From sequence record KF766125: DNA of 60,875 nt, one strand, 5' to 3'. The notes under the pieces are model-generated. The model saw only the letters and a program-made list of their open reading frames with translations, did not search any database and was not told the DNA's origin. Of the stretch, positions 8,491 to 12,898 are shown piece by piece. The position numbers and the translations under genes were made by a program. Within the stretch, counting starts at the first letter, position 1, and each line of letters opens with the position of its first letter. This DNA comes from Shigella phage 75/02 Stx.

Positions 8491-9261
8491 CTAAAGCAGA
8501 ACTGAATACCAGAAAACTTTTCCGATAATCTCCACGCTTTGAGTATCTGCTTCTTCGTCAGGGTACTCTTCACTGTTATAACTGCGTATGATTAGTTTTC
8601 CACCGGGGCGTCTGTACAATAGCTTTATACGCTTCAGTTTTTCATCACCGACACCAGGCTGTGCGATGGCGTAGAGTTTGCTGTCAACAATACGTTTGTT
8701 GTTTGTGTCTACTGCGATTGTTGTTCCATCTGGTATCACGGGTTCCATGCTATCACCAGTAGCCGGAAAACAAAGCACACCAGAACCATCACTGTTAGCT
8801 CCGACACGGCGCAAGGTTGCTTTTGAGAAGCGTAATTTAAAACCATTATGATCTTCGCAATGAACTCTTCCGTCACCGCATGCAAACTCAATGTCTTTCA
8901 GATATGGCACCTCAACTTCATCATCTCGTAGTGGTGTATTTCTGTCCCAAGTTTCAAGGGAACCCCATTCTGATTCGTTTGGAATAGAAGGTCGCTGTTT
9001 TACGGATGGCTCGTTACTGCCATACTCCAACCACTCCGGCTTCACGGAAAGCCAGTCACTAAGTGCCAAAATACTTGTTTTTTCTGGAATTGATGCAGAA
9101 TTAAGCCATTTCCAGATCCCCGGTTCAGAGATATCAATGCCTCGCAGTTTCATTGCATTCTGAATCCGCTTAGCCTGACCGCGTCCGCCCACACCTGCAT
9201 CTAATAATGCCTGTAGTAGTCTCTTTGAGAACGCTTCTTTTAGTTCATCTTTTTTAACCAT
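8491..9261 (-). CDS. cI: CI-type prophage repressor (HTH + S24 LexA-like peptidase domain)
   Basis: 256 aa; C-terminal GDSMEP active-site motif with downstream Lys; divergent from cro across an operator region. Confidence 0.9.
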   Translation of the reverse strand: MVKKDELKEAFSKRLLQALLDAGVGGRGQAKRIQNAMKLRGIDISEPGIWKWLNSASIPEKTSILALSDWLSVKPEWLEYGSNEPSVKQRPSIPNESEWGSLETWDRNTPLRDDEVEVPYLKDIEFACGDGRVHCEDHNGFKLRFSKATLRRVGANSDGSGVLCFPATGDSMEPVIPDGTTIAVDTNNKRIVDSKLYAIAQPGVGDEKLKRIKLLYRRPGGKLIIRSYNSEEYPDEEADTQSVEIIGKVFWYSVLL

Positions 9262-9333: not shown

Positions 9334-9573
9334 ATGGATAGCAGTATGAATCCGATACAATTCGCAGTAAAAGCTGTTGGTGGTCAAACAGTCGCTGCCC
9401 GTTTATGCGGGTTGTCAAATGTTGCAATTCATAAGTGGGTTAAAAACGGAGCGTTACCTCGCACCGAATACACGATGAAAACCAACTATTCGGAAATTCT
9501 CGCCAATGCATCTGATGGCAAATTTACCGCCGAATGGTTACGCAATGTAGCGAATCCTGATCGTCAACGATAA
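9334..9573 (+). CDS. cro: Cro-like HTH regulator
   Basis: 79-aa ORF divergent from cI, HTH-like segment; start may be the second ATG at 9346. Confidence 0.8.
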   Translation: MDSSMNPIQFAVKAVGGQTVAARLCGLSNVAIHKWVKNGALPRTEYTMKTNYSEILANASDGKFTAEWLRNVANPDRQR

Positions 9574-9716: not shown

Positions 9717-10013
9717 ATGTCACAAACAAGTTACAGCAAACTGTCGCAGCGCGATATCGATCGCGCTGAAACGGATTTACTTATCAACCTGTCAGCTCTG
9801 ACGCAAAGGGGACTGGCGAAGATGATTGGCTGCCATGAATCGAAGGTCAGTCGTACCGACTGGCGATACATTGCGGCGATTTTATGTGCGTTCCAGATGG
9901 CATCTGATATCAGTCCGATCAGCCGGGCGTTCAACCATGCCATTAACGTTCATGCAAATAAAAAACGTCCGGTTGGGGCCGGACGTTCTGAGCAAATCCT
10001 GATGAATATTTGA
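9717..10013 (+). CDS. cII: CII transcriptional activator
   Basis: 98 aa; C-terminus NKKRPVGAGRSEQILMNI matches lambda CII (NKKRPAATERSEQIQMEF). Confidence 0.9.
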   Translation: MSQTSYSKLSQRDIDRAETDLLINLSALTQRGLAKMIGCHESKVSRTDWRYIAAILCAFQMASDISPISRAFNHAINVHANKKRPVGAGRSEQILMNI

Positions 10014-10084
10014 TATTCAGGCAGGGCATGGAGCAATACACGGGAATAATTCTGCCACATCTGGAAGAATTTCGCCAGCAACAA

Positions 10085-10234
10085 CACCAACCGCAGCAGC
10101 CTGAAGCCGATTGGGTTAACCCGGAGATACCGGGACCGTCTGTGAAGATGTGCAGTCACACCAATGTGCAGTCACACCAACCGCAGCAGCCTGAAGCCGA
10201 TTGGGTTAACCCAGGAGATACCGGGACCGTCTGC
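10085..10234. repeat. Two direct copies of an approx. 58-bp iteron-like element upstream of the O-like gene
   Basis: caccaaccgcagcagcctgaagccgattgggttaaccc(g/ag)gagataccgggaccgtctg at 10085-10142 and 10176-10234; each has the 10-bp palindrome GGGTTAACCC; a third diverged copy lies inside the O-like gene at 10925-11014. Confidence 0.75.
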
Positions 10235-10266
10235 GGTATGGAGTAAATCTTGTATGCGAGGGGACT

Positions 10267-11355
10267 ATGCGTAATTACGCAACAATTTCACCTCAGTTCT
10301 GGTTAGGCGATACAGGGCGAAAACTAAGGAAGTCTGGTCCGGAATGTATGGTAGTGGCGTTGTATATGATGACCTCGCCTCATTCCAATATGCTGGGCCT
10401 TTATTACCTGCCTGTTTTGTACATTGCTCACGAAACCGGACTTGATCCTGAAGGGGCTTCTAAGGGGCTTCAAATGGCTTGCGAGGCTGGTTTTTGCAGC
10501 TATGACCATGATTCTGAGGTTGTATGGGTGCATGAAATGGCAGCATGGCAGGTTGGTGAAGCGCTGAAACCAGGCGATAACCGTTGTGCTGGGGTAAGAA
10601 ATGAATATTCCGCGTTGCTGGAAAATCCTTTTTTATCATCCTTTTATGATAGATATAAGGATGATTTCCACCTGGATGTCAGACGTGAATCATGTCGGAA
10701 AATTGAAGCCCCTTCAGAGCCCCTTTCAAGCCAAGAACAAGAACAGGAACAGGAACAGGAACAGGAAAGAGATAAAACCCTTCTGGTCCATGGCGAAAAA
10801 ATCGCCACGGACCCACTGGTGGATTCTTGTCCCGTTCTGACTGAACGTCCAGGACCAGCTGGCATGACACCGGAAGCAGATTCCGGGCGTTGTGTGCAGC
10901 AGGTGCTGCACGTCGAACCGGAGCAACAACACCAACCGCAGCAGCCTGAAGCCGATTCCGCGATGAGCGGGAAGCCGATTGGGTTAACCCGGGCGATGCC
11001 GGGACCGTCTGCGGGACGAGTTGATTATCCTGACGTGTTCGAACGGGTCTGGCGTGAATATCCGCATCGGGCAGGGTCAAACCCGAAGAAATCCGCGTTC
11101 AATGCCTGGAGGGCCAGATTACGCGAAGGGGTGTCACCGGATGTCGTGCTGGATGGCGTGAGGCGTTACGCAAGATACCTGGAGGCTACCGGGAAAGTGG
11201 GAACTGAATTTGTTCAGCAGGCATCGACGTTTTTTGGCCCGAACAGGAATTTCGAAAATCCGTGGGCGCTGCCGAAGGCTGGCGCAGTCAGCCTGCGTTG
11301 CGTGAATCACATTTCTGAACCGGACACCGAAATTCCGCCGGGTTTCAGGGGGTAA
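10267..11355 (+). CDS. Replication initiator, O-like (replisome organizer)
   Basis: 362 aa; position after cII; internal (EQ)n linker from a gaacag hexamer tract at 10735-10764; internal iteron-like copy; followed by a DnaC-like gene. Confidence 0.8.
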   Translation: MRNYATISPQFWLGDTGRKLRKSGPECMVVALYMMTSPHSNMLGLYYLPVLYIAHETGLDPEGASKGLQMACEAGFCSYDHDSEVVWVHEMAAWQVGEALKPGDNRCAGVRNEYSALLENPFLSSFYDRYKDDFHLDVRRESCRKIEAPSEPLSSQEQEQEQEQEQERDKTLLVHGEKIATDPLVDSCPVLTERPGPAGMTPEADSGRCVQQVLHVEPEQQHQPQQPEADSAMSGKPIGLTRAMPGPSAGRVDYPDVFERVWREYPHRAGSNPKKSAFNAWRARLREGVSPDVVLDGVRRYARYLEATGKVGTEFVQQASTFFGPNRNFENPWALPKAGAVSLRCVNHISEPDTEIPPGFRG

Positions 11356-11361
11356 TCAGCC

Positions 11362-12102
11362 ATGAAAAACATTTCGACAGGAGGGATTCTTGAACGGGTG
11401 CGCCGTCTGGTACCACCGCACGTTACAGCACCGTTCCGGACGACCGACGAGTGGCTGGAATGGCAACTGGCTGAGGGCCGGAAGCGCAGCGAGGAAGTTA
11501 ACCGCCAGAATCACCAGACGCGGGTTGAAAAAATCCTGAATCGTTCGGGCATCCAGCCGCTTCACAGGAAGTGCTCATTCGGGAACTACCGGGTGCAGAA
11601 CGACGGTCAGCGCCATGCTCTGAGTCAGGCAAAATCCATCGCGGCAGAGCTGCATACCGGCTGCACGAATTTCGTGTTCAGCGGTAAACCTGGCACCGGG
11701 AAAAATCACCTTGCAGCAGCGATTGGTAATCGGCTGATGGCGAAGGGGAGAAGCGTGATTATCGTCACCGTGTCCGATGTCATGAGTGTGTTGCATGACG
11801 GCTACGACAACGGCAAGTCTGGTGAGAAATTTTTACAGGAGCTTTGTGGCGTTGACCTTCTGGTCCTGGATGAAATTGGCATGCAGCGGGATACGCGCAA
11901 CGAGCAGGTCATACTGAACCAGATCGTCGACCGCAGAACGGCATCACTGCGCAGTGTCGGGATGCTGACGAACCTGAATCACGCAGCGATGAGCACACTC
12001 CTCGGCGAGCGGGTGATGGACCGTATGACCATGAACGGTGGTCGTTGGGTGAATTTTAACTGGGAGAGCTGGCGGTCAAACGTTGGGCGTCAGGGTATGT
12101 GA
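11362..12102 (+). CDS. DnaC-like helicase loader (IstB-like AAA+ ATPase)
   Basis: Walker A GKPGTGKNHLAAAIG and Walker B LLVLDEIG. Confidence 0.9.
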   Translation: MKNISTGGILERVRRLVPPHVTAPFRTTDEWLEWQLAEGRKRSEEVNRQNHQTRVEKILNRSGIQPLHRKCSFGNYRVQNDGQRHALSQAKSIAAELHTGCTNFVFSGKPGTGKNHLAAAIGNRLMAKGRSVIIVTVSDVMSVLHDGYDNGKSGEKFLQELCGVDLLVLDEIGMQRDTRNEQVILNQIVDRRTASLRSVGMLTNLNHAAMSTLLGERVMDRMTMNGGRWVNFNWESWRSNVGRQGM

Positions 12103-12127: not shown

Positions 12128-12898
12128 ATGGAAACCGTATTGCATGCACTGAAAGCGATGGGTAAAGCCAATTCTGTTGAACTGGCGGCGCGGCTTGATA
12201 TCAGCCGTGAAGAAGTTCTCAACGAACTGTGGGAACTCAAAAAAAATGGTGTTGTTGATAAAACGGGTCACACCTGGTTTCTGGCTGTCGAAGGTGAATC
12301 CGGGGTAACCGAAGGGCAGGCACTACAATCTGAAGCGCCGGATGTGGTAACCGAAGAGGTCGCTCCAAAAGTTAGCGCTGACATGATGATTGAGTTTATC
12401 GCTCAGGAGGGGGCTAAAACCTGTGAAGAAATAGCGGGTAAGTTCGGAGTTACCACTCGTAAGGTTGCTTCCACTTTGGCGGTAGTAACAGCAACGGGGC
12501 GCCTGGTGCGCGTGTCTATCAAGGGAAAATTCCGTTATAAAGTGCCTGACGTCGAAAACGGCGATTTGAGCGCGTCATCATCGCAGGATGAGAATATCAC
12601 ACACGAAGCAGAAAACAGCGCGTCAGGCGACGAACTGAATCGCTTTCCGTTGATGTCAGAGGGCACGGCAAAGGCCTGTACAGATGAGTTTATCCGGGAT
12701 GTTCCGTCGTTCACCGAAAAATATGCTGGTGCAGTGACCCTTCCACCTCTACGGGCCGCCAGTCGTGAACTTCGTCGCGCCAAAAAACAGGTCCAGAAGT
12801 GGGAGCGTGTCTGTGCTGCACTACGTGAGCTGAATAAACACCGGGAACTTGTCATGCAGATTACCGATTCATCCAGCAGTATTGCATCGGAAAAGTGA
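12128..12898 (+). CDS. Hypothetical protein, winged-helix-like N-terminus
   Basis: 256-aa ORF after the replication genes; acidic central region. Confidence 0.65.
   Translation: METVLHALKAMGKANSVELAARLDISREEVLNELWELKKNGVVDKTGHTWFLAVEGESGVTEGQALQSEAPDVVTEEVAPKVSADMMIEFIAQEGAKTCEEIAGKFGVTTRKVASTLAVVTATGRLVRVSIKGKFRYKVPDVENGDLSASSSQDENITHEAENSASGDELNRFPLMSEGTAKACTDEFIRDVPSFTEKYAGAVTLPPLRAASRELRRAKKQVQKWERVCAALRELNKHRELVMQITDSSSSIASEK

Follow-up and report, generated by a model that had tools for sequence, protein, structure and literature searches.

Linker-derived tandem repeats between cII and the replication-initiator gene of Shigella phage 75/02 Stx: most likely a minisatellite-like recombination scar

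The analyzed stretch of DNA, here called the window, comprises 60,875 nucleotides of Shigella phage 75/02 Stx (KF766125), and the repeats described below lie between its cII gene and its O-like replication-initiator gene as well as within the latter. The region is 98-99% identical to Shigella phage POCJ13, phiSTEC1589-Stx1c, PhiR5_2, and the Stx prophage of E. coli O104:H4. The surrounding genes and signals are as follows.

8491-9261, minus strand: gene for a cI-like repressor
9334-9573: cro-like gene
9717-10013, plus strand: cII gene
9962-9989, minus strand: intrinsic terminator within the cII 3' end, with homology to the oop terminator region of lambda
10267-11355, plus strand: replication-initiator (O-like) gene, 362 aa
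10735-10767, plus strand: (GAACAG)5.5 microsatellite in the initiator gene, encoding an (EQ)n run and differing in length among relatives
11362-12102, plus strand: gene for a DnaC-like helicase loader, the partner of the initiator

Homology to approximately 290 other cII modules, from Stx and lambdoid phages, breaks off at the stop codon of cII (window positions 9997-10011), which on this criterion marks the module junction on the left. Positions 10014-10266 have counterparts in the present lineage only. On the antisense strand, positions 9950-10060 fold as two hairpins (z = -3.4), while positions 10040-10076 show a weak alignment (59%) to the start of lambda O, covering its ribosome-binding site and first codons, the region that holds pO in lambda. 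The repeat array extends from just past the presumed pO-like promoter region (approximately 10045-10075) to the initiator ribosome-binding site; it likely adjoins a remnant of a lambda-type junction between cII and O, and its location between this remnant and the initiator ribosome-binding site points to a module joint. A consensus scan of the array for promoters and terminators returned none, a terminator-like match at 11006-11018 is within chance expectation, and inspection of the repeat unit by eye for DnaA boxes, CRP sites, and cII half-sites gave nothing convincing.

According to the alignment of homologues, the initiator consists of a conserved N-domain (aa 1 to about 140), the (EQ)n run, a variable linker (about aa 170-245), and a C-domain (about aa 245-362). 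The (GAACAG)n run is the boundary between the N-domain module and a module of linker plus C-domain, which starts directly after it and is shared at 77-79% nucleotide identity by three unrelated N-domain types, namely N1 (this window, MRNYAT/MRDYAK), N2 (phage Tritos, MANAWL), and N3 (P0119, MARYRK). In the species survey, the back-translated pattern coincided with the low-complexity (EQ)n run; the survey yielded at least four loci, which were informative. The C-domain weakly matches the C-terminal domain of DnaT (PDB 2ru8, 6aep, and 9zbt; E 0.004-0.013), and its C-terminus, SEPDTEIPPGFRG, carries the SEPDxxIPPGFRG tail found in DnaT; the domain search of the initiator returned no Pfam match and only the DnaT tail from NCBIfam. 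A DnaT_C motif in O-like (DopC-type) proteins has already been reported (PMC5509034). The AlphaFold model of the N-domain is mediocre (pLDDT 62), with a core of helix-helix-helix-strand-helix-helix-strand-strand, and Foldseek matched it weakly to winged-helix regulators only (E 0.006 or worse), so that a winged-helix-like N-domain is suggestive only. A DUF1627 HTH protein is also encoded downstream.

Repeat search and MAFFT alignment located three copies of the repeat, of which the first two lie head to tail, 90 bp from start to start, between cII and the initiator gene.

10077-10143, plus strand: upstream copy A, with GAAGCCGATT at 10103-10112, the palindrome GGGTTAACCC at 10113-10122, and GGGACCGTCTG at 10132-10142
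10148-10180, plus strand: perfect 16-bp tandem duplication (ATGTGCAGTCACACCA, 2.1 units) in the spacer of about 30 nt between copies A and B
10167-10236, plus strand: upstream copy B, with GAAGCCGATT at 10193-10202 and the palindrome GGGTTAACCC at 10203-10212
10922-11014, plus strand: intragenic copy C in the linker of the initiator gene, with GAAGCCGATT at 10948-10957 and 10971-10980 and the palindrome GGGTTAACCC at 10981-10990

The core common to the copies reads CA(A/C)CACCAACCGCAGCAGCCTGAAGCCGATT-GGGTTAACCC-(8-9 nt spacer)-GGGACCGTCTG and spans 61-62 bp in A and B, the spacer of copy A being 1 nt shorter than that of copy B. Copy C is collinear with A and B except for 23 extra nucleotides at 10958-10980 (CCGCGATGAGCGGGAAGCCGATT), an internal duplication that supplies the second GAAGCCGATT unit. 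A further GAAGCCGATT unit with one mismatch occurs ahead of copy C at 10873-10882. Exact GGGTTAACCC is found at only three sites in the 60,875-bp window (10113, 10203, and 10981); with up to one mismatch there are eight matches against 1.3 expected, a number reached in 0/100 shuffles of the window. The 36-nt block 10077-10112 is 100% identical to 10922-10957, far above chance, and the rest of the unit is about 90% identical. The last upstream unit may show homology to the linker over about 18 nt more, reaching the start of the C-domain. The original prediction, which described two tandem upstream copies of an approximately 58-bp element and a third, diverged copy inside the O-like gene, each with a perfect palindrome, thus agrees closely with the layout found here. 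The alignment with the O genes of relatives that it proposed shows that the upstream copies come from part of the O-like gene, being paralogous to the linker DNA at 10922-11014.

The array is highly variable among near-clonal relatives, with one, two, or three upstream units and a period of 90 or 113 bp, although the N-domain DNA is 98-100% identical across the 78 E. coli genomes that carry it. Two units are the majority state, including most IMG/VR contigs; one unit is present in IMG/VR contigs L009, L012, L024, and L025 and among complete E. coli genomes (H103-107), and three units in P0121 (25 contigs). The number of ATGTGCAGTCACACCA units in the spacer between copies also differs in relatives (P0122). 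Copies with a mutated palindrome (GGGTTATCCC) persist in L036 and in P0128, the latter on 22 contigs. The array was found in 81/5,426 E. coli genomes and four phage records, while the upstream copies are absent in the Rac-like, ydaS/ydaT, and Klebsiella contexts of the initiator gene family. Far from being missing in all close relatives, which would have spoken against the original prediction, the array is present in 78/78 E. coli genomes with the allele; because this carrier lineage is 98-100% identical, such retention says nothing on function.

One relative, E. coli 23CRST049 (locus L042), carries three units upstream, repeating every 113 bp (2.7 copies, 98% matches), and its N-domain DNA is 98.3% identical. 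Each of these units includes the 23-nt segment and is collinear with the L042 linker over 85 nt, and the third unit differs from the L042 intragenic copy by one substitution. All four L042 copies carry CCTGATGCC, in place of the CCTGAAGCC of all three window copies, and such a SNP, common to every copy in one genome, suggests gene conversion more than selection on individual sites. On these comparisons, the upstream array and the intragenic copy evolve in concert, with sequence exchanged between them. A second relative, strain SW071611 (locus L043), has the cII-proximal flank joined to the C-domain via a hybrid unit, and the N-terminus of the gene is marked as missing in RefSeq. As read from this hybrid unit, an upstream unit and copy C have recombined in this genome, an event that removed everything from the N-domain through to the linker, the N-terminal two-thirds of the initiator, and left a pseudogene in a dead prophage.

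According to these results, the array is best explained as a linker-derived, tandemly amplified, and recombinogenic scar at the joint between cII and the replication module, with no required role, a reading to which we assign a probability of roughly 0.6; the feature would then most likely be of an ordinary kind. An ectopic copy of the linker, later tandemly amplified, would have left this minisatellite-like scar between the cII/oop and replication modules of POCJ13/O104:H4-type Stx phages. The comparisons show the paralogy of the unit with the linker and an array that shifts, by unequal crossing-over or slippage, between one, two, and three units of 90 or 113 bp. They also show that the array trades sequence with the intragenic copy, that recombination of an upstream unit with that copy has cost the dead prophage its N-domain together with the candidate iterons described below, and that the open reading frame across the array lacks conservation. 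The first copy may have arisen by illegitimate recombination as the replication module joined a lambda-type junction between cII and O; this part is a reconstruction. A parent in which cII is followed by a gene running from a short MEQY... start through the linker to the C-domain was searched for among extant sequences and none was found, nor was a longer ancestral protein starting MEQYTGIILPHLEEF. The presence of the array in every genome with this replication allele counts against the scar account, and so, weakly, does the sequence conservation of the element described below. Nothing on this repeat array was found in the literature that could be searched.

The alternative that survives best, though we regard it as unlikely, is that the units are auxiliary binding sites, composed of GAAGCCGATT, GGGTTAACCC, and GGGACCGTCTG boxes. 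Their ligand would be a factor that accompanies every N-domain type; candidates are the DnaT-like C-domain, the DnaC-like loader, the DUF1627 HTH protein, and a host protein. Through titration or handcuffing, the array would then adjust initiator expression or replication, much like iterons outside the origin in plasmids and P1. The presence of the array in every genome with the allele speaks for this reading. Several features of the element are consistent with this view. GGGTTAACCC and GGGACCGTCTG are near-invariant across copies, with variation in the 8-9-nt spacer that separates them, and about 50 nt of the element are read in different frames in two linker variants, so that protein constraint cannot explain its conservation. 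When the window is compared with an N3-type gene (77% identity), the longest identical run, the 28-nt TGAGCGGGAAGCCGATTGGGTTAACCCG (p about 0.09), spans the palindrome, and the element holds 3 of the 5 longest. In each of the three initiator types there are also two pairs of GAAGCCGAT units, 23-24 bp apart, close to the lambda iteron period of 20-24 bp.

These DNA-level conservation signals are weak, since they come from 2-3 independent lineages whose loci were partly retrieved by the motif itself, and gene conversion, which is demonstrably at work, could also yield them. The invariance of the palindrome was not used as evidence, because the retrieval patterns contained the palindrome and the lineage is near-clonal. 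Against auxiliary sites, moreover, most of the family, some members with the same loader among them, lacks the element, the array is hypervariable in a near-clonal lineage in which palindrome mutants persist, its period of 90 or 113 bp shows no helical phasing, and AT-rich DNA is not adjacent. It is more doubtful still that the linker-derived unit with its three boxes represents a second class of cis-acting site, read by a component common to the three initiator types. If that were true, the variable array would be a copy-number-tunable control of O104:H4-type Stx phage replication, and hence of toxin gene dosage.

The palindromic repeats had also been described as iteron-like, with the intragenic copy fitting an origin within O. 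Other repeats in the initiator gene fit an origin better, and their positions are given here.

10449-10473, plus strand: candidate origin iteron cluster 1, two GAAGGGGCTTC units in an 11-bp phase, encoding EGASKGL
10590-10680: AT-rich stretch (GC 0.30-0.35), the only one in the initiator gene, between the two GAAGGGGCTTC clusters
10703-10727, minus strand: candidate origin iteron cluster 2, the GAAGGGGCTTC unit inverted (GAAGCCCCTTCAGAGCCCCTT), encoding EAPSEPL

Every N-domain type has its own repeats, arranged in two clusters 230-260 bp apart in the N-domain coding region, the second of them just before the acidic run.

N1 unit: GAAGGGGCTTC, 11-bp phase
N2 unit: GTCAC(G/A), 10-bp phase, 4+5 copies
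N3 unit: AAGGCTTC/AAGCCTTC, 12-bp phase

Across 162 loci, the counts of the type-specific repeats (GAAGGGGCTTC, GTCACG, and AAGGCTTC) co-vary with the N-domain type. In six lineages, ranging from E. coli to Stenotrophomonas and Methyloversatilis, the N1 clusters keep the gene offsets +184/+195 and +428 to +462; those of the lambda iterons in O are +348 to +432. The codons GAA GGG GCT ... AAG GGG CTT keep invariant third positions even in hosts of 63-65% GC, and the second N1 cluster occurs in either orientation, encoding EGA(S/L)KGL or EAPS(K/E)PL, with the DNA motif kept. That the motif is kept whichever peptide is encoded, with its third positions invariant, indicates selection on DNA. We infer that the origin is probably 10449-10727, where the GAAGGGGCTTC clusters flank the AT-rich stretch, a candidate unwinding region with a hairpin (ATCATCCTTTTAT/ATATAAGGATGAT) at 10635-10665. 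The winged-helix-like N-domain would bind the cluster pair, the DnaT-like C-domain would recruit the DnaC-like loader and DnaB, and the array would have no required role in initiation. Two clusters of own repeats about 250 bp apart in the coding sequence of each N-domain type appear to be a general rule in this initiator family. A search of the literature for the origin of this replication module, or for any of the three motifs, found nothing.

The palindromic repeats behave differently from these clusters. The gene holds one palindrome unit, the upstream period is 90/113 bp, and closely spaced phased repeats (at least three) are absent, so that the description as iterons is not supported. The DNA is GC-rich (0.53-0.60 over 10077-10236 and 0.60-0.67 over 10920-11014), with no AT-rich neighbor. 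The palindromic linker variant occurs with N1 in this lineage and with N3 in L048, which has a ydaS/ydaT context and lacks the upstream copies, while a non-palindromic linker variant, GGGTAGTCCC, accompanies N2 (81 loci) and also N1 in Rac-like prophages; across these loci, the presence of the palindrome does not follow the initiator's type of N-domain. The Tritos-type linker, at about 100 IMG/VR loci, lacks the palindrome-bearing unit, and neither AAGCCGAT units nor the palindrome was found in the homologues of Klebsiella, Serratia, Stenotrophomonas, and Methyloversatilis, although the Klebsiella homologues keep a DnaC-like loader. The linker segment is wholly missing in 302-aa Klebsiella-type proteins and partly deleted in P0008. 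With its GC richness, patchy distribution, and independence of the N-domain, copy C thus does not suit an origin within O, and of the two explanations first offered for the additional upstream copies, an extended origin or a recombination scar, the paralogy with the linker favors the scar, while the extended origin is not supported by these tests.

It is accordingly very unlikely that copy C and the linker GAAGCCGATT units are part of the true origin and that the upstream copies extend it. Copy C does lie in the inter-domain linker, the general region of the lambda O origin, and it contains several short palindromes and folds, as RNA or DNA, somewhat better than shuffles (z = -2.2); its palindrome is nevertheless independent of the N-domain type, whereas the clusters at 10449-10727 co-vary with it, the surrounding GC is 60-67%, and the linker segment is missing or partly deleted in the proteins named above.

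A small open reading frame also crosses the array and was annotated as a hypothetical protein in phage records.

10028-10246, plus strand: 72-aa open reading frame (78 aa from a TTG at 10010), reading through copies A and B and assigned to phrog_2751

In near-identical relatives its length is 42, 46, 51, 58, 62, 72, 76, 88, or 102 aa, with ten variants of length or frame, and in L042, where it is unannotated, a stop follows after 37 codons. The protein database holds forms corresponding to one, two, and three units, to an extra 16-bp spacer unit, and to several frameshifts (42-102 aa). Because length and frame are not conserved, the reading frame is a by-product of the repeats, as first suspected, and is probably not a gene. 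That it encodes a functional small protein, with the repeats as its coding repeats, is hardly credible: the frame stays open with identical start and stop in the one-, two-, and three-copy forms (42, 72, and 102 aa), follows a weak Shine-Dalgarno-like AGG, and has a PHROG of its own, but in L042 it is cut short by a stop, frameshifts have commonly given forms of 46, 51, 58, and 76 aa (P0128 on 22 contigs), the family is limited to one near-clonal E. coli phage lineage, no Pfam or NCBIfam match was found, and where it spans the repeats it is linker DNA, translated in part out of the linker frame.

A role at the RNA level was considered separately and rejected. The plus-strand transcript of 10014-10270 folds no better than shuffles (z = -0.48), and the Rfam matches are sub-threshold and at the level of chance.

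The value of the scar reading is mostly corrective. The palindromic repeats would be the wrong place to seek the origin of a clinically relevant Stx-phage replication module, which is common to the O104:H4 outbreak phage and POCJ13, and the open reading frame over them should not count as a gene. The array is, on the other hand, a hypervariable marker that could tell apart near-identical Stx prophages, and it provides a built-in route of prophage inactivation, since recombination with the intragenic copy removes the N-domain of the initiator. As a by-product, the analysis yields a testable origin prediction at 10449-10727 and the rule that modules of this initiator family are swapped at the (GAACAG)n run.

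Among known systems, E. coli DnaT (primosomal protein I) resembles the initiator in its C-domain and tail, and the DnaC-like gene follows the initiator gene as dnaC follows dnaT; this likeness concerns the protein whose gene hosts copy C rather than the repeats, and apart from the tail the match is weak. In plasmids and phage P1, iteron arrays also occur outside the origin, at control loci of the incA/incC type. The present array is alike in being related to sequence of the rep-gene region and placed upstream of the rep gene, but it is unlike the N-domain-specific repeats in sequence and is hypervariable and absent from most relatives.

The lambda origin consists of four 18-bp O-binding repeats inside gene O, followed by an AT-rich region. 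The repeats described here share with it a location within a lambdoid initiator gene, in the inter-domain region, and a comparable GAAGCCGAT spacing. They differ in that the gene holds one palindrome unit, that AT-rich DNA is not adjacent, and that co-variation with the DNA-binding domain is lacking. A closer counterpart of the lambda arrangement is the pair of GAAGGGGCTTC clusters at +184 and +437, on either side of the AT-rich stretch.

With bacterial VNTR loci or minisatellites, the array shares head-to-tail units of 90/113 bp in one to three copies among near-identical genomes, a nested variable 16-bp repeat, and no visible coding constraint; here, however, the unit is paralogous to the linker of a functional gene and homogenized with it, and the array is situated in the early operon of a temperate phage. 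Lambdoid phages are also known to carry mosaic-junction scars, with short common linker sequences at module boundaries (e.g., in HK620/HK97 comparisons). Similarly, the present array lies exactly where homology of the cII module stops and is made of duplicated DNA of the neighboring module, but unlike those scars it has grown by amplification to a variable array of tandem units that still recombines with its source copy.

The replication origin of the phage is probably situated inside its O-like initiator gene (window 10267-11355, 362 aa), where an 11-bp unit, GAAGGGGCTTC, is repeated in two clusters that, with an AT-rich stretch, make up the region predicted from sequence (window 10449-10727). 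The repeat features of this gene, whose N-domain is of type N1, and of the relatives with unrelated N-domains (N2 in phage Tritos, N3 in P0119) are as follows:

Window 10449-10473, N1 cluster 1, 11-bp unit GAAGGGGCTTC
Window 10590-10680, AT-rich stretch, the sole one in the initiator gene
Window 10703-10727, N1 cluster 2, 11-bp unit GAAGGGGCTTC inverted
Window 10735-10767, (GAACAG)5.5 microsatellite, encoding (EQ)n
Locus L001 2037-2075 and 2297-2345, N2 clusters, GTCACG x4 and x5, 10-bp phase
Locus L048 3187-3217 and 3451-3498, N3 clusters, AAGGCTTC/AAGCCTTC, 12-bp phase

The AT-rich stretch is bracketed by both GAAGGGGCTTC clusters. Across E. coli, Klebsiella, Serratia, Stenotrophomonas and Methyloversatilis, these clusters occupy equal gene offsets, have invariant third codon positions and occur in either orientation. 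The N2 and N3 genes, which share the C-terminal module of the window initiator, possess their own repeat clusters, also inside the N-domain coding region and spaced by ~250 bp.

The (GAACAG)n run is the exact joint at which the three N-domain modules meet the shared linker and C-domain module, and every distant homologue has an EQ/DQ run after cluster 2. The length of the microsatellite differs by 6-bp steps between relatives, so that the palindromes are spaced by 766, 772 or 778. Further downstream, the palindromic and Tritos-type linker variants (window 10964-11010 vs L001 2585-2635) differ by -1 and +1 indels, and ~50 nt of the linker are consequently read in different frames (SGKPIGLTRAMPGPSAG vs QREADRVVPENTGQPVG). 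Since both frames are open, the linker peptide is unconstrained there. A natural deletion allele was found in E. coli SW071611 (L043 2000-2135), in which a crossover within GAAGCCGATTGGGTTAACCC, between a palindrome-bearing unit upstream of the initiator and the copy in its linker (copy C, window 10922-11014), has deleted both the N-domain and the putative origin.

Upstream of the initiator, an element lies on the opposite strand at the 3' end of cII and beyond:

Window 9950-10060, minus strand, oop-like antisense element

This antisense region adopts a two-hairpin fold (z = -3.4), and its intrinsic terminator (9989-9962, minus strand), which lies within the 3' end of cII, has its homologue in the oop terminator region of lambda. 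A possible extended -10 for the element, TGGCAGAAT, is seen near 10048-10056. The lineage-specific segment 10014-10076 aligns weakly (59%) to the cII|O junction of lambda and the opening codons of its O gene, and might be what is left of a lambda-type O gene that was replaced, kept along with pO.

The initiator CDS in RefSeq POCJ13 (NC_025434) starts 81 nt downstream of that in other records (10348 vs 10267); an alignment of homologues favours 10267, with the ATG that begins MRNYAT..., as the start. At its C-terminal end (window 11275-11355, aa 337-362) the initiator bears the DnaT tail SEPDTEIPPGFRG. A DnaC-like helicase loader gene (11362-12102) comes next, and after it a further gene:

Window 12128-12898, DUF1627 protein gene with weak N-terminal HTH matches

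The DUF1627 gene likewise comes after the loader in the L048 and Serratia contexts, and its product is a candidate DNA-binding partner for the replication module. A homologue from Serratia that shares this N-domain carries an acidic tail where the DnaT tail would be, and is followed by a lambda-P-like gene; the initiator tail thus tracks the loader. In the phage studied here, the initiator with its DnaT tail and the adjacent DnaC-like gene mirror the order of the host dnaT-dnaC pair.
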